This document shows, one piece after another, positions 21,346 through 61,539 of a stretch of DNA of 64,000 bases. Location: assembly GCA_963700855.1 (NCBI GenBank), contig CAVOYV010000001.1, positions 853,881 to 917,880 on the forward strand. The letters are read 5' to 3'. The number at the start of each line of letters is the position of its first letter. Positions within the stretch are counted from its first letter, which is position 1. This stretch comes from an uncultured Actinomycetes bacterium. GTDB taxonomy: Bacteria > Actinomycetota > UBA4738 > HRBIN12. Position numbers and translations under genes: made by a program. Under the pieces are notes generated by a model. That model was not told the origin of the DNA and made no database searches. It worked only from the letters and a program-made list of their open reading frames with translations.

Positions 21346-24503
<3,158 letters not shown>

Positions 24504-24539
24504 AGTTCTCAAGGTGCCCGAGGGCTCGCACCCTCAAAG

Positions 24540-26378
<1,839 letters not shown>

Positions 26379-54568: not shown

Positions 54569-55252
54569 CTAGCGGATCGAGCGCGCGATCGAGCGCGCGA
54601 CGCCGGCCGGATCGTCGGCACCGGTGATCGGTCGACCGACCACGAGGAAGTCCGCCCCCCGCTCGATCGCGTCGGACGGGGTGAGCACACGGACCTGGTC
54701 GTCGCCGTTCGACCCCTGGGGACGGATGCCGGGCACCACGAGGCAGAACGCGTCGCCGCACACGTCGCGGACGTCCCGGACGTCCTCGCCGCTCACGACG
54801 ACGCCGTCGAGACCGGCCTCCTTCGCCTCCCACGCGAGCGAGGCCGGCGACGCGAGATCCTCGCCGGTCTGCGAAGAGAGCACGGTCACCGCGATGACGA
54901 GCGGGGTCGGCGCGCCGGCCTCCGCCGCTCCGCGCCGCGCGCCCGCCACGGCGGCCCGCATCATGTCGAGCCCACCGAGCGCGTGCACGTTCATCATCGC
55001 CGGCCCGAGGCGGGCGATGTTCGCGCTCGCCCGCTCGACCGTGGTCGGGATGTCGTGGAGCTTCGCATCGACGAACACCGGGCCGCGTTCGGCGATCCGA
55101 CGCACCGCATCGGGGCCGTGCGCCCAGAACAGCTCGAACCCGACCTTGAGCATCCCGACCTCCGGGGCCAGCACCTCCGCGAGGGAGCTCGCGTGTGCGA
55201 GGTCGCTCGTATCGAGCGCGACGACCAGAGGGTTCTCCGGTGGCGGGATCAC
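54569..55252 (-). CDS. pyrF: orotidine-5'-phosphate decarboxylase
   Basis: VVALD, LKVG, FVDAKLHDIPTTV, PGIRP, VVGRPI. Confidence 0.95.
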   Translation of the reverse strand: MIPPPENPLVVALDTSDLAHASSLAEVLAPEVGMLKVGFELFWAHGPDAVRRIAERGPVFVDAKLHDIPTTVERASANIARLGPAMMNVHALGGLDMMRAAVAGARRGAAEAGAPTPLVIAVTVLSSQTGEDLASPASLAWEAKEAGLDGVVVSGEDVRDVRDVCGDAFCLVVPGIRPQGSNGDDQVRVLTPSDAIERGADFLVVGRPITGADDPAGVARSIARSIR

Positions 55253-56211
55253 GGGACCGATCCGTCGGGTGGGCCGAACCCCGCCGGCACGCGGAGGCGG
55301 GCCCGAACGTCGGCGGGCGAGCCGAGGTTCTTCGCCTTGAGGTACCGAGCGATCCCCTGCGCCACGGTCACGGGTGCCGCCGGGTCGATCATCGTGGCGG
55401 TCCCCACCTGTACCGCCCACGCGCCGGCGAGCAGGCACTCGACCGCGTCGGCGGCGGTCCGGACGCCCCCGCTCGCGATCACCGGCACCCCGGGGACCGC
55501 CCGGGAGACCTCGAACACGGCGCGGAGGGTCATCGGCTTGAGCGCAGGGCCGGACACCCATCCGGTCACGGCACCGAGTTCGGGGGCGAGCCGGTCGGCA
55601 TCGGCCGCGAGACCCGGCGGCGAGCCCGCCACGGTGACCCCGGACGCACCCGCACGGACCGACGCGCGGGCGAGCGACGCCACGTCGTCGACACCGCCCG
55701 GAAGCTTCGCGAACACCGGCACGAGGGACATGCGGGCCACCGCACCGGCGATCTCGGACACACGGTCGACGTGGGCGCCGAGGACCGGGCGCGAGAGCTC
55801 GTCGTCCGGCCCGGAGAGGTAGATCTCGATCGCGGCCACCTGTGGACGCCCCTGAAGGGAGGTCGTGAGCCGCACGAACTCCTCGAGCGTGCCTCCGCCG
55901 ATCGACACGATCACCGGGACCCCCGTCCGTGCGAGTCGATCGAGCTCCTCGCCCACGAAGCCGTCGATGCCCGGGTTCTGCAGGCCCGTATCCCAGACGA
56001 TCCCGGACGGGGACTCGACGATCCGAGGCGTGGGCGCTCCCTTGCGGGGCTCGATCGTGATCGTGCGCGAGACGATCGCCCCCACCTTGTGGAGATCCAC
56101 CAGACCCGTCAGCTCGCGGCCGGAGCCCCCGCACCCGGCGGCGATCATCACGGGGGTGGCCAGGGAGAGCCCCTCCAACTCGACCGACAGCGTCCGTTTC
56201 ACGCCCGCCAT
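55249..56211 (-). CDS. pyrD: dihydroorotate dehydrogenase family 1B catalytic-subunit homolog with a degenerate active site (alternative start GTG 56202)
   Basis: Collinear with PyrD-1B: PTPRIVE, GLQNPG, SGPALKP, IASGGV, VQVGTA. ELNISCPN is replaced by EIYLSGPD. Confidence 0.85.
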   Translation of the reverse strand: MAGVKRTLSVELEGLSLATPVMIAAGCGGSGRELTGLVDLHKVGAIVSRTITIEPRKGAPTPRIVESPSGIVWDTGLQNPGIDGFVGEELDRLARTGVPVIVSIGGGTLEEFVRLTTSLQGRPQVAAIEIYLSGPDDELSRPVLGAHVDRVSEIAGAVARMSLVPVFAKLPGGVDDVASLARASVRAGASGVTVAGSPPGLAADADRLAPELGAVTGWVSGPALKPMTLRAVFEVSRAVPGVPVIASGGVRTAADAVECLLAGAWAVQVGTATMIDPAAPVTVAQGIARYLKAKNLGSPADVRARLRVPAGFGPPDGSVP

Positions 56212-57095
56212 GCCGACTCCCCGGCCCCCGGCCACCGCGTGACCGCCTCGATCCCGCCGGGGGGCGTCGGCAGCATCTTCGGCTCCTCGGACAGCCATCG
56301 ATCCCACAGGATCCTCGCTGGGTTGAACACCGGTCCCTCGGTGCAGGCGCGCAGATGGTCGTAGCCGCTCCCGTCCTTGCGGGCGACCGGCACGACGCAG
56401 GTGTTGCACAGACCGAACCCACAGCCCATACGCTCCTCGATGGCGACCTGGGCGGGGATCCGCAGGTCCCGGCAGACGTCGGCGATCCGGCGGAGCACCA
56501 CCGCCGGCGCGGCCGCGTACAGCACCTCGGTCTTCGTCCGCTCGATCGCTTCGGGCAACGCGTCGACGATCGTCCCCCGATCGCCCAGCGACCCGTCAGA
56601 GGTCACGACCGACACCGTCGATGAGAGCCGCTTCGCCTCGATCGGCTTGAAGACCGATCCGAGCGTGGACCCCCCGATCACCATGTCGACGCGCTTGTGA
56701 CGGGCGAGCAGCTCCTGCGCCAGGAAGTAGAGGGAGGCGGCGTGGCGCCCCTCCGCCACCAGCAGGCAGTTCGTGAGCTTCCTCGGGTACGCGAAGGGCT
56801 TGCCGAGCGGTCCGATCACGTCGAGGAACTCGTGCGCCTTCGCCTGGGCGAGCCAGCGTGATCCCGGTCCCGCGTCGTCGATCGCGAACTCGAGCGTGCC
56901 CGCCCAACCGCCGCGGCGCGACGCTTGGTGGATCGCGTGATGCCGCCGGAGCAGGAACTCGCGGTCCTCGGGCATCGCGATCGCGACGAACTGCCCTGGG
57001 CGCGCGCGGTCGGCGATCTCCGGCGCGACGAGGGTGAGTTGGTGGAAGGCACCGAGCCGGCGGGTCGACAGGATCTCCGCCCGGACACGCTTCAC
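56199..57095 (-). CDS. pyrK: dihydroorotate dehydrogenase electron-transfer subunit homolog (2Fe-2S), FAD/NAD motifs degenerate
   Basis: [31 protein letters not shown]...CTEGPVF. Confidence 0.87.
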
Positions 57096-60000
57096 GCGCC
57101 AGCCTCCGTGGCCGCCACGGCCTCATCGAACGTGAGACGGGCCTGCAGCGGCTCCTGCCTCGCCGCCGCATGATGCTCCTGCACGCTCCGGGGCTCGGTG
57201 GGATCGCCCCGCAACGCCTCGATCCCGCGCACCGCGGCGAAGACCCCGGGCAGCGTGGTGATGCAGGGCACGCCGGCCGACGCGCTCGCGGTCCGGATGT
57301 AGGAGCCGTCCGTGCGCGGCGCACGGCCGAACGGCGTGTTGACGACCAGGTCGATCCGACCGCCGCGGATCAACTCGGCGACGTTGTCGGGGCCCTCGCT
57401 CACCTTCGCGACCCGCTCGACGGGGATCCCCGCCCGTTCGAGCACCCCAGCCGTCCCGCCGGTCGCCAGCAACCGGAACCCCATGTCGGCCAGCCGCTTC
57501 ACCGCGAACACGATCGCCCGCTTGTCACGGTTCGCGACGCTGACGAACACCGTGCCCTCCGTGGGCAGCGCATGCCCCGCGGCCACCATCGCCTTCGCGA
57601 GCGCCATCCCCGAATCCGCGTCGACGCCCATGACCTCACCGGTGGACTTCATCTCCGGGCCGAGGACGGTGTCGACGCCGGGGAACCGCCCGAACGGCAG
57701 CACCGCGGCCTTCACGCTCGTGTACGGGAGGTGCCGGTAGTGGTGCGGGTCGCCCGGCAGCACCCCGGTGGCGACCAGGTCCGCGAGCCGCTGACCGGTG
57801 AGCACCAGGGTCGCGACCCGCGCGAGGGAGACACCCGTGACCTTCGACACGAACGGCACGGTCCGCGAGGCCCGGGGGTTCGCCTCCAGCACCCAGATCC
57901 GCTCGTCCTTGACCGCGAGCTGCAGGTTCAGCAGGCCGACCACCCCGAGCCGCCGTGCCAGACGCCGGGTGATGTCCTCGATCACGTCGAGCTCGTCGTC
58001 GGACAGGGTCGCCGGGGGGATCTGGCACGACGAGTCCCCCGAGTGCACCCCCGCCTCTTCGATGTGCTCCATCACGGCGCCGATGAAAACACCGCCCTCC
58101 TCGTCGGCGACCGCGTCGACATCGACCTCGATCGCCCCCTCCAGGAACCGGTCGATCAGGACCGGGTGATCGGGCGAGGCCGCGGCGGCGGTCCGGACGA
58201 ATCCCTCGAGCTCCTCGTCGTCGTAGACGATCTCCATGGCGCGCCCACCCAGGACGTACGACGGGCGCACGACGACCGGGTAGCCGACCTGCTGCGCGAT
58301 CGCCCGCGCCTCCTCCATCGTGCGCGCCTCCCCGTGCGGCGGCGCGGGGATCTCGAGCTCGTGCAAGATCTCGGCGAACTTGCCCCGATCTTCGGCCAGG
58401 TCGATCGCGTCCGGCGAGGTCCCGAGGATCGCGAACCCCTCCTCCTGCAAGATCCGGGCGAGCCGGAGCGGTGTTTGCCCGCCGAACTGCGCGATCACGC
58501 CGGTGGGCCGCTCGGCGCGGCAGACCGCCAGGACGTCCTCGGCCGCCAGCGGCTCGAAGTACAACCGGCTCGACGTGTCATAGTCGGTCGAGACCGTCTC
58601 GGGGTTCGAGTTGATCATCACCGATTCGTAGCCCGCTTCCTCGAGCGCGAACGCCGCGTGCACGCACGCGTAGTCGAACTCGATCCCCTGGCCGATCCGG
58701 TTCGGGCCGGCACCCAGGATCACGACACGGGGCCGGTCGGCGGGACGGACCTCGGTCTCCTCCTCGTAGGTGGAGTAGTGGTACGGCGTGCGAGCCGGGA
58801 ACTCCCCCGCGCAGGTGTCGACCGTCTTGAACACGGGCTCGACCCCGAGCGCCTCGCGGTGGCGACGGACCGCGCCCTCGGTGGCCCCGGTGAGCGAGGC
58901 GAGCCGCGCGTCGGACACACCCAGCCGCTTCGCCTGCCACAACTCGGCTGCACCCAGCATGTGCAGCGGACGTCCGTCGATCCCCGCGATCTCGTCGACG
59001 ACCTGCGCGATCTGGTCGACGAACCACGGATCGATGCCCGACGCCGCCGAGATGTCGTCGACCGGCTGCCCCCCGAGCAACGCACGCTCCACCAGGTGGA
59101 GCCGATCCTCCGTCGGCGTGCCGAGGGCCTCCAGCACGTCCCCCTCGAAGCCCATCACGTGCTCTGCCCCCAGGTCGAACCCGCCCTTCTCGAGACCCCG
59201 CCACGCCTTGCCGAGCGCCTCCTTGAAGGTGCGGCCGATCGCCATCACCTCGCCGACGGACTTCATCGTCGACGACAGGACCGGCGAGGCCTCGGGGAAC
59301 TTCTCGAACGCGAACCGGGGGATCTTCACGACCACGTAGTCGAGGGTCGGCTCGAACGCCACCGGGGTCTCCCCCGTGATGTCGTTCACGATCTCGTCGA
59401 GGAGGTAGCCCACGGCGAGCAGCGCGGCGATCTTCGCGATCGGGAACCCGGTGGCCTTCGAGGCCAAGGCGCTCGAACGCGACACGCGCGGGTTCATCTC
59501 GATCAGGACCTGACGGCCCGTCCGAGGGTCGACGGCGAACTGGACGTTCGAGCCCCCCGTCTCGACCCCGATCACCCGAAGCACCTTGATCGCGTCATCG
59601 CGCATCCGCTGGTACTCGCGGTCGGTGAGGGTCTGTTGCGGCGCCACGGTGATGGAGTCGCCGGTGTGGACCCCCATCGGGTCCACGTTCTCGATCGAGC
59701 ACACGATCACGGCGTTGTCGGCGCCGTCGCGCATCACCTCGAGCTCGAACTCCTTCCACCCGGCGATCGACTCCTCGACGAGGATCTCGCCCACCGGGCT
59801 GGCGGCGAGCCCGCGAGCGGCGAGCGTCGCGAGCTCCTGGCGGTTGTGCGCGAACCCGCTCCCGCCGCCGCCCAGCGTGAAGGACGCCCGCACGATCAGC
59901 GGGTAGCCGATCGTCTCACCGAGCGCGAGCGCCTCGTCGAGCGTGTGCGCGACGCCTGCGCGCGGGACCTCGAGCCCGGCCTCCTGCATCGCCCGCTGGA

Positions 60001-60394
60001 AACCGCTGCGGTCCTCGGCCTTGTGGATCGCCTCGAGCGAGGCGCCGATCAGGGCGATCCCCAGCCTGTCGAGCTCCCCCGATTCGGCGAGCGCGACGCT
60101 GACGTTGAGCCCGGTCTGTCCCCCGAGGGTCGGCAGGATCGCGTCGGGCTTCTCGCGCTCGAGCACCGCCAGGACGGACTCCGGTGTGAGCGGCTCGATG
60201 TACGTACGGTCGGCGAACTGCGGGTCCGTCATGATCGTCGCCGGGTTCGAGTTGACCAGCGAGACCTCGAATCCCTCGGCGCGCAGCACCTTGCACGCCT
60301 GCGTCCCCGAGTAGTCGAACTCGCACGCCTGACCGATCACGATCGGACCCGAGCCGATCACCATGATCCGCTGGACGTCGGTGCGCTTCGGCAC
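57092..60394 (-). CDS. carB: carbamoyl-phosphate synthase large subunit
   Basis: MPKRTD...[68 protein letters not shown]-terminal MGS domain. The GTG overlaps the carA stop. Confidence 0.97.
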
Positions 60395-61539
60395 TACGCG
60401 CCACCGCCCATCAGGTGGCGGAACTCCTGGAACAGGTACCGGGAGTCGTGCGGTCCCGGGGCCGATTCCGGGTGGTACTGGACGCTGAAGGCCGGCACAT
60501 CGAGGCACCGCATCCCCTCGAGGGTCCCATCGTTCAGGTTCCAGTGGCTGAGCGCCACCCGGCCGTAGTCTGAGAGAGCCTCGCCGTGCGGGTCCTTCAC
60601 CCACCCCTCCGGATCCACCGCGAATCCGTGGTTGTGCTCGTGATCTCGACACGCCCGCTGCGAGGTCCTTCACCGGCTGGTTCACGCCGCGGTGGCCGAA
60701 CTTCATCTTGTAGGTGCGCCCGCCGAGCGCCAGGCCCAGGAGTTGGTTGCCCAGACATACTCGAAGACTTCGGCACCTTGCCGAGCAGTTCGCGCGTCGC
60801 CGCGATCCCGTAGGCGGTGGCGGCGGGGTCGCCGGGTCCGTTCGACAGGAACACCCCGTCGAACCCGCCGTGCGCGACGGCCGCCGCCGGCGACTCGGCC
60901 GGGTAGACGGTCGTCTCGATCCCGTGCGCGGCCAGAAGGCGCAGGATGTTCCGCTTCATCCCGAAGTCGAACGCGGCCACCCGGAAGACCCGTCCGTGCT
61001 CCGTCGCCGCCGTCCCGACGAGGTCCGCCGCCGCCCACGGCTCGGTCGAGGTGACCGTGCGGGCTAGGTCGGCTCCCGCATCCCCGGCGAGGCCTGGACC
61101 CGGCCGACGAGCGACCGAGGCTCCAGGTCGACCGTCGAGGAATCGCGGCTCGCATCGCGCCGTGCTCGCGCAGCCGCAGCGTCAACCGACGCGTGTCGAT
61201 CCCCTCGATCCCGACGACACCGTCCGCCTGCAGGTGCTCCCCGAGCGGAGCTTCGGTATCGCCACGAAGACGGCCTCCGCGTAGCTTCACGGACGACGAA
61301 GCCCGCCACCTGCACGCGCCACGACTCGGGGTCCTCGCCGTTCACGCCGTAGTTGCCCTGCTGCGGCGCGGTCATCGTCACGATCTGCCCCGCGTAGACG
61401 ACGGGTCCGTCAGGACCTCCTGATACCCGGCCATCCCTGTTGAAGACGGCCTCCCCGAAGGTCTCGCCCTCGGCCGCGAACGCCGACCCATGGAACACCG
61501 TCCCGTCCTCGAGCGCCAGCAGCGCGGAGTCCCGCTCAC
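60394..61539 (-). CDS. carA: carbamoyl-phosphate synthase small subunit; several indels and miscalls in this sequence
   Basis: Fragments in several frames: [89 protein letters not shown]. Confidence 0.92.

Follow-up and report, generated by a model that had tools for sequence, protein, structure and literature searches.

A PyrK/PyrD pair with matched loss of its substrate sites in the pyrimidine operon of Actinomycetota, probably a retired class-1B dihydroorotate dehydrogenase kept by selection

The DNA analyzed here, called the window in the following, is a stretch of 64,000 nucleotides from contig CAVOYV010000001.1 of an uncultured Actinomycetes bacterium (GenBank assembly GCA_963700855.1). 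Its pyrimidine operon contains, between carB and pyrF, two genes for homologues of PyrK and PyrD, the subunits of class-1B dihydroorotate dehydrogenase (DHODB; DHODH is used for dihydroorotate dehydrogenases in general). The terms pyrK' and pyrD', with the products PyrK' and PyrD', were used for these degenerate genes and for their counterparts in other genomes throughout the text. An original prediction made from the window had noted that PyrK' lost its motifs for flavin adenine dinucleotide (FAD) and nicotinamide adenine dinucleotide (NAD), while all four cysteines for the [2Fe-2S] cluster were kept. Our analysis indicates that both subunits lost their substrate sites in step, that both genes are retained by selection, and that the pair is probably a retired DHODB. 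The features of the two genes are the following:

56199..57095, minus strand: pyrK', a 298-amino-acid PyrK homologue with GTG start, probable retired electron-transfer subunit of DHODB
55249..56211, minus strand: pyrD', a 320-amino-acid class-1B PyrD homologue in which catalytic base and orotate-binding asparagines are lost
56934..56948, minus strand: RRHHA in place of the FAD motif RRPxS (residues 50-54), with the Arg pair kept, Pro replaced by His and Ser by Ala
56859..56870, minus strand: GPGS, the second FAD (pyrophosphate) motif GxG(T/S) (residues 76-79), retained
56733..56759, minus strand: degenerate NAD(P)-binding loop VAEGRHAAS (canonical VGGGxGxxP; residues 113-121)
56505..56519, minus strand: YAAAP in place of the nicotinamide-site motif Y(A/T)CGP (residues 193-197)
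56331..56423, minus strand: [2Fe-2S] ligand motif C225-x4-C230-x2-C233...C251 (CGFGLCNTC...C; Cys span 56343-56423) with flanking Gly/Pro residues
56226..56273, minus strand: conserved C-terminal tail of PyrK', predicted to be disordered (predicted local distance difference test, pLDDT, below 50-55)
55804-55827, minus strand: EIYLSGPD in place of ELNISCPN in PyrD'

Searching with phmmer, PyrK' was found related to NfnA (4YLF_A, 2e-23) and to PyrK of Lactococcus lactis (5KSW_B, 1e-19). The sole Pfam match was the iron-sulfur domain PF10418 (47.8 bits, cutoff 23.9). From the NCBIfam PyrK equivalogs tested (NF000796-NF000799), the best one, NF000799, gave 117.7 bits and did not reach its cutoff of 314. 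According to the AlphaFold2 model (mean pLDDT 86.7) the predicted fold of PyrK' is preserved, with template modeling (TM) scores of 0.75-0.84 to PyrK and the small subunit of NfnI in Foldseek. The former NAD domain was the best-predicted portion of this model, Rossmann-like and with a pLDDT of 95-98.

For the motif comparison 118 canonical PyrK were set against 42 members of f1, the window's own family, using L. lactis numbering. Residue G118 of the NAD loop was replaced by Glu in 41 of the 42 f1 sequences (Gly in 99% of the canonical set). At the nicotinamide site C197 was Ala in 37/42 and G198 was Ala or Gly, compared to 98% Cys and 100% Gly in canonical PyrK. The FAD site was less affected. 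While P54 was His in 40/42 and S56 was relaxed (25 Ala, 13 Ser, 3 Thr), R52 and R53 were kept in 41-42 of the 42 sequences, and G77, G79 and T/S80 of the second motif in 41/42 as well as in all 119 Nocardioides-type PyrK described below. The four cluster cysteines (Cys225/230/233/251) were invariant in f1 (42/42), in the Nocardioides type (119/119) and in all intermediate lineages; in f1 the flanking Gly and Pro residues were invariant as well. The motif strings quoted in the original prediction were thus all present, and the losses in the NAD loop (AEGRHAAS), in the CGP motif (AAAP) and at Pro and Ser of RRPxS are true ones. GPLGKPF (residues 95-101), which had been counted as a lost motif, is no loss, as canonical actinobacterial PyrK carries GPLGRPF, and the claim of lost FAD motifs was overstated with regard to the Arg pair and GxG(T/S). 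Overall, the predicted NAD site of PyrK' is gone, the predicted FAD site is altered in part only, and the predicted cluster site is intact.

The same substitutions were observed in 120 of 120 close database homologues of PyrK', and the gene was detected in 148 of 151 genomes of the class; they therefore reflect neither chance nor sequencing noise. Their occurrence in characterized active PyrK had been named with the original prediction as an objection to it; they were found in none of the structurally characterized PyrK 1EP1-3, 5KSW and 5UE9. Outside of these sites, the tail LPTPPEGLPVVRxWPG (consensus LPTPPxG(L/I)xxV(R/T)xWPG) was conserved across most of f1, with the last approximately 25 residues of the PyrK' model disordered. 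This tail, formed by roughly the last 25-35 residues, resembles a short linear motif through which a partner might be bound, possibly PyrD. A related TPPxGF...W tail was observed in canonical PyrK of family f8.

The partner PyrD' matched PF01180 with 165.6 bits (cutoff 27) and L. lactis PyrDb (5KSW_A) with 7e-52. It stayed narrowly below the curated equivalogs NF005574 (260.7 versus 269 bits) and TIGR01037 (227.3 versus 270 bits). For PyrD, 120 canonical sequences were compared with the 42 sequences of f1, again in L. lactis numbering. In the canonical set the catalytic Cys135 was kept to 98% and the asparagines N72, N132, N137 and N197 to 100%. The PyrD' of the window carries Gly at position 135 and Trp, Tyr, Asp and Gly at positions 72, 132, 137 and 197, respectively. 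Across f1 this pocket varied, with mostly Trp at position 72 (W/S/T/Y), Y/H/R/N at 132, G/E/A/L at 135 and G/D/A at 197; position 198 varied as well. The former catalytic positions 132 and 135 fell into the 90th-92nd percentile of site variability within f1. Two other exchanges, K48 to Arg and N137 to Asp, were each found in 42/42. Invariant in f1 were also the FMN (flavin mononucleotide)-phosphate motifs and glycines, K170, and the GxPTPR loop (G57-P61-R62-E65), which by inference contacts PyrK.

Both genes are under purifying selection. For close f1 pairs (dS 0.1-0.6) the ratio of nonsynonymous to synonymous substitution rates (omega) was 0.03-0.07 for PyrK' and 0.08-0.15 for PyrD'; the C-terminal part of CarB, taken from these pairs as well, gave 0.05-0.09. 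The analysis was restricted to pairs with dS up to approximately 0.6, as values of distant pairs are inflated by dS saturation at 70% GC. Nearly all of the 148 class genomes carried an uninterrupted pyrK'. The match was split in two in three of them (G014, G024, G026), and beyond these cases the only in-frame stop observed was the natural stop of a shorter 290-amino-acid form. Hence, pyrK' and pyrD' are functional genes and not pseudogenes. Two features expected of pseudoenzymes, the loss of catalytic and substrate residues in an otherwise conserved homologue and purifying selection over the whole protein, were both found.

A context that the original prediction did not include is an intact second DHODH in the same genome (2.5 Mb, 82% complete). 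This further PF01180 protein, pyrD2, is encoded on another contig (G000:C7:183724-184701, corresponding to L001 1363..2343, plus strand) and divergently adjoins pyrE. It has class-2 N-terminal helices and retains the Lys, each of the four Asn and an intact catalytic position (NASCPN). Against the NCBIfam models for quinone-dependent DHODH it reached 221 bits, which is under every cutoff (267). These residues and the pyrE neighbor were kept in 12/12 relatives checked, with SCPN in f1, f3 and f6 and SSPN in f2. Judged by its residues, it is plausible that pyrD2, and not the operon pair PyrK'/PyrD', serves as the DHODH of these organisms. The enzyme is unusual in that the class-2 N-terminal helical domain is combined with a Cys as catalytic base instead of the class-2 Ser. 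Two more paralogues were noticed in the genome. A third PF01180 protein of 345 amino acids, labeled "dihydroorotate dehydrogenase-like" (G000:C7:191104-191721; L003 1333..2370, minus strand), shows a weak match of PRK07565-type appearance and lies directly downstream of, and overlapping with, a pyruvate:ferredoxin-oxidoreductase-like gene. A second PyrK-family protein (G000:C2:6598-7329, minus strand) is 26% identical to PyrK'.

The presence of pyrD2 predicts the degeneration of the pair. We compared 151 genomes of the class, which belong to a single order with 8 families (f1-f8). We were aware of the fact that most of them are metagenome-assembled genomes, so that absences may reflect incompleteness. 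The gene pyrD2 was present in 111 of 116 genomes of f1, 3 of 3 of f2, 1 of 2 of f3 and 6 of 6 of f6. None of the 24 genomes from f5, f7 and f8 had it; the lone hit in f5 was the genome's own PyrD. PyrK and PyrD were both degenerate at every examined locus of f1, f2, f3, f4 and f6, and both canonical at every locus of f5, f7 and f8 (PyrK RRPFSI, VGGGYGAAP, YACGPN; PyrD TKSV, MLNAIGLQN, EANIS(C/S)PN, LINT). Across the 8 families the two subunits were jointly degenerate or jointly canonical, and this sorting was the same as the distribution of pyrD2. The phylogenetic co-variation of both genes, proposed as a check along with the original prediction, was therefore observed. The same holds for its central claim, a matched loss of the NAD end of PyrK and the substrate end of PyrD with retention of the Fe-S/FMN core, which agrees with the joint states in the 8 families, their grouping in one clade and the purifying selection. 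In other families of the Actinomycetota 45 of 46 genomes were canonical in both subunits, and these 45 were without class-2 DHODH. The lone genome of this set with a true class-2 enzyme (G357, 432 bits) had an early-stage degenerate PyrK (VGQGYGAAP, YASGPM, RRPFAI), while its family mate G199 had neither a class-2 enzyme nor a degenerate PyrK.

The order of events became visible as well. At an intermediate stage found in f6 (locus L128), the NAD loop and the CGP motif of PyrK were lost, while PyrD kept its Cys and most Asn. A degenerate PyrD with a canonical PyrK was found in no lineage examined, and the NAD site thus seems to be the first to go. In the tree of concatenated PyrK and PyrD the order formed a clade with a support of 100, in which the canonical branch f5+f7+f8 was separated from a degenerate branch f1+f2+f4+f6 (100); all supports given are values of the Shimodaira-Hasegawa-like approximate likelihood ratio test (SH-aLRT) from quick searches. 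As the degenerate sequences of the order form one clade, a single origin within the order is deduced. A sub-lineage of f6 (loci L183-L186 from G039, G090, G091 and G136) had lost the FAD GxGT motif of PyrK' too (SNAAM, GNASA, ENTSE), with the four cluster Cys kept; its PyrD' reads EVNACCPS with two adjoining Cys. From these motifs, FAD seems to be dispensable where the [2Fe-2S] cluster is not.

A search with representatives at 50% identity revealed further degenerate PyrK lineages, Nocardioides among them. The operon of N. euryhalodurans (CP038267) has the order carA-carB-pyrD(class 2, NVSSPNT)-pyrK'-pyrD'-pyrF-...-mihF-gmk-rpoZ-coaBC-metK-priA with overlapping genes, and its PyrK' carries RRAFWI, VGEGYAAAP and YAAGST. 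In 119 PyrK' of this type W56 was found in 119, Glu or Asp at position 118 in 105, A197 in 103 and all four Cys in 119 sequences. In the PyrD' of N. euryhalodurans, Arg replaces K48, Ala replaces C135 and Asp replaces N137, so that G118E/D, K48R and N137D are the switched residues common to f1 and Nocardioides. No Nocardioides-type sequence was present in the 300-genome sample of the phylum; they were reached by protein homology search and the encoding contigs. A scan of genome contigs with the single protein retrieved mostly Firmicutes PyrK, matched through the word EERMGCGF. In maximum-likelihood trees the Nocardioides pair was placed outside the order and beside a canonical sequence (SH-aLRT 95-97; order 100), also after removal of the trait columns, and the displacing DHODH of Nocardioides is of another type and at another locus than pyrD2 of the order. 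One clade of all degenerate sequences was not rejected by the approximately unbiased test (p = 0.32 for all columns, 0.077 without trait columns). Overall, the degenerate pair of Nocardioides probably arose independently of that in the order.

In the window the pair is part of a conserved actinobacterial block with the minus-strand order pyrR-pyrB-pyrC-carA-carB-pyrK'-pyrD'-pyrF-mihF-gmk-rpoZ-coaBC-metK-priA. The direct neighbors are:

57092..60706, minus strand: carB, upstream neighbor of pyrK', whose stop overlaps the pyrK' start as GTGA
54569..55252, minus strand: pyrF, orotidine monophosphate decarboxylase (PF00215, 171 bits), whose GTG start overlaps the pyrD' stop (GTGA)

A GGAGG box precedes the GTG start of pyrK', and the pyrK' stop codon lies 13 nt within pyrD'; carB, pyrK', pyrD' and pyrF are translationally coupled. 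Apart from the operon, a region of the window at approximately 22000-26000 had a G+C content of 0.59-0.61 compared to approximately 0.70 elsewhere in the window, for which an rRNA operon or foreign DNA is possible.

Going by the sequences, PyrK'/PyrD' can hardly be a dihydroorotate:NAD+ oxidoreductase like those known, and selection has retained the pair. We favor the explanation that it is a retired DHODB, surviving as an Fe-S/flavin complex that would act via protein contacts, and assign to it a probability of roughly 0.62. The ancestor of f1, f2, f3, f4 and f6 would have gained the class-2-like DHODH pyrD2 beside pyrE, which took over the oxidation of dihydroorotate. The resident PyrK would then have lost its NAD(H) site, and PyrD its catalytic base and the orotate-binding asparagines. 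Both may persist as a folded, interacting complex whose translation is coupled to that of CarB and PyrF, and would be maintained by selection for a role that needs neither dihydroorotate nor NAD. Most likely the complex would support pyrimidine synthesis as a partner with a structural or regulating role, or it would be an insulated redox-sensing or electron-relay module tied to the expression of carB-pyrF. The functions suggested in the original prediction (redox or Fe-S sensor, use of another electron acceptor, scaffold for the pyr enzymes) are candidates as before. The explanation draws directly on the matched degeneration of the subunits, the link to pyrD2, the purifying selection on both genes and the conserved core. 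The predicted [2Fe-2S] site, the FMN-phosphate site, K170 and R48/D137 of PyrD' are retained in every lineage.

Several observations weigh against a retired enzyme. Two degenerate genomes (G027, G033) are without a detected pyrD2, both being only 81-83% complete. In a metagenome-assembled genome of the Nanopelagicales (GCA_030700225.1; L213, 6001-7759) the NAD loop of PyrK is destroyed (IGIETSAAA, RRAMWI), while PyrD keeps a Ser base and 3 of 4 Asn, and no other DHODH-like gene of the assembly exceeds 60 bits. As this PyrD is the sole detectable DHODH there, a lost NAD site is by itself no proof of retirement, and the Nanopelagicales pair may be a NAD-independent DHODB variant with another electron acceptor. 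With a contig of Streptosporangiaceae type (L214), where PyrK is partly degenerate and PyrD near-canonical, it illustrates that NAD-site loss alone may be compatible with an active enzyme on another acceptor. The FAD motif is kept in most lineages, but a portion of f6 and certain Nocardioides are without it, and a uniform FAD-FeS-FMN relay can therefore not be the shared function. Cofactor binding, complex formation and loss of activity of PyrK'/PyrD' are all deduced from the sequences. Finally, the conservation of R48/D137 beside the flavin could stand for new chemistry rather than none.

This last point leads to the possibility of a neofunctionalized oxidoreductase, in which PyrD' would act on a new small-molecule substrate at a remodeled FMN site, or PyrK' would reduce quinone, ferredoxin, O2 or a similar acceptor in place of NAD+. 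We consider it unlikely. Next to the FMN site, the two new residues R48 and D137 do not vary and recur in the separately branching Nocardioides lineage, and conservation is strict for the Fe-S ligands and the flavin-phosphate motifs. Moreover, four cases (L128, L214 from Streptosporangiaceae, G357 and L213 from Nanopelagicales) pair a PyrK without NAD site with an intact-looking PyrD, which suggests that NAD-independent DHODB variants exist. A precedent for a new substrate is provided by fungal "class 1A-like DHODH" shown to be dihydrouracil oxidases (PMC10395836); these enzymes, however, retained their catalytic residues, and in PyrD' the former catalytic position carries no conserved acid or base. 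Positions 72, 132, 135, 197 and 198 vary within f1 while the rest of the protein is 65-85% identical, which argues against a defined pocket, and a new substrate pocket in PyrD' was ranked lower for this reason. The operon context is also unchanged, with no new neighbor genes hinting at another pathway.

Two simpler explanations were considered. The genes might be decaying relics on their way to loss, held only by their overlapping codons between carB and pyrF, as a deletion would disturb pyrF expression. All four junctions are indeed overlapping start/stop pairs, the substitutions at the dead sites differ between families as relaxed constraint predicts, and stem branches are longer in the degenerate than in the canonical clades. 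Translational coupling, however, constrains a few codons at the gene ends and not a whole amino acid sequence, and omega of 0.03-0.15, equal to CarB, extends over the entire 298- and 320-residue proteins. With pyrK' uninterrupted in nearly all class genomes, the four Cys invariant in more than 160 sequences, and the pair kept across at least 40 genera and in Nocardioides, decay is very improbable. Even harder to reconcile with the data is a pair that still is the NAD-linked DHODB, merely diverged, with pyrD2 as a redundant isozyme. The position between carB and pyrF, the overall fold and the full-length DHODB homology are preserved, and with 260.7 bits PyrD' is just below the 269-bit cutoff of NF005574. 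On the other hand, the catalytic Cys/Ser is Gly in the window and variable within the family, N72, N132 and N197 are lost, N137 is Asp, the NAD loop contains a Glu and the CGP motif is gone. These states occur in none of the 118-120 canonical sequences, all structurally characterized enzymes included, and we find this explanation scarcely credible.

Dihydroorotate dehydrogenase is a textbook enzyme and drug target. The retired DHODB would be a rare case of a heteromeric redox enzyme in which both subunits lose their substrate sites in step while the cofactor core is under strong selection. Its stages, from canonical via loss of the NAD site to loss of the catalytic site, can be traced within one order, and the process probably occurred more than once. 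This would mean that class-1B DHODH possesses a second function apart from orotate synthesis, or acquires one readily. We further put forward, tentatively and with considerable doubt, a broader proposal. Wherever the DHODH step passes to a quinone-type enzyme in Actinomycetota, the resident DHODB might not be discarded but repeatedly and convergently (PyrK G118 to Glu/Asp; PyrD K48 to Arg, N137 to Asp) become a substrate-blind FMN-[2Fe-2S](-FAD) module that newly serves to sense redox state or iron, or to regulate, in the carB-pyrF part of pyrimidine synthesis. Such modules would form an undescribed class of two-subunit Fe-S flavoprotein pseudoenzymes. Thousands of actinobacteria from soil and freshwater would carry them, cultured Nocardioides among these. 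We found no description of degenerate PyrK/PyrD pairs in the literature. Database labels of such proteins are inconsistent ("dihydroorotate dehydrogenase electron transfer subunit", "iron-sulfur cluster-binding protein", "hypothetical"), and due to these pipeline labels metabolic reconstructions of many Actinomycetota may put the DHODH step on the wrong genes. The same arrangement in cultured Nocardioides makes the pair accessible to direct genetics and biochemistry.

The characterized systems nearest to the pair are the DHODB of L. lactis and NfnA. By its NAD site and its catalytic residues, respectively, neither PyrK' nor PyrD' qualifies as a functional PyrK or PyrD. The DHODB of L. lactis, a heterotetramer of PyrK and PyrDb (1EP1/1EP2/1EP3, 5KSW, 5UE9), is likewise encoded by a two-gene unit in the pyr operon. 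PyrK' aligns with it over the full length (1e-19, TM 0.75-0.84) and PyrD' over residues 8-280 of 320 (7e-52), and the four-Cys motif, the FAD GxGT, the FMN-phosphate motifs, K170 and the GxPTPR loop are shared. In contrast, PyrK' has AEGRHAAS for GGGxGxxP, AAP for CGP and RRHHA for RRPxS, PyrD' differs by Cys135 to Gly, the loss of N72/N132/N197, N137 to Asp and K48 to Arg, and the DHODH step would be performed by another enzyme of the genome. The fungal class-1A-like DHODH paralogues resemble PyrD' as a second DHODH-family protein beside a class-2 DHODH, which is the real DHODH there; they are dihydrouracil oxidases and did not complement pyrimidine auxotrophy (PMC10395836). They are still active, whereas PyrD' has lost its catalytic base and Asn residues, with variation at these positions within the family. 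The best sequence match (2e-23) and structural match (Foldseek 3e-24, TM 0.78-0.82) of PyrK' was the small subunit NfnA/NfnI (4YLF_A, 5JCA_S), the PyrK-like FAD/[2Fe-2S] subunit of NADH-dependent ferredoxin:NADP oxidoreductase, with the same three-domain fold and cluster motif. NfnA, however, has a functional NAD(H) site and a GltD-like partner, NfnB, while PyrK' has a destroyed NAD loop and a PyrD homologue in the pyr operon as partner gene. By analogy, the nearest conceptual precedent may be PyrC' of the Pseudomonas aspartate transcarbamoylase, an inactive dihydroorotase-like subunit which lost catalysis after a takeover and was kept for a structural role with PyrB. PyrC' has in PyrB a demonstrated partner, whereas PyrK' and PyrD' would be two subunits retired together, both with their cofactor motifs.

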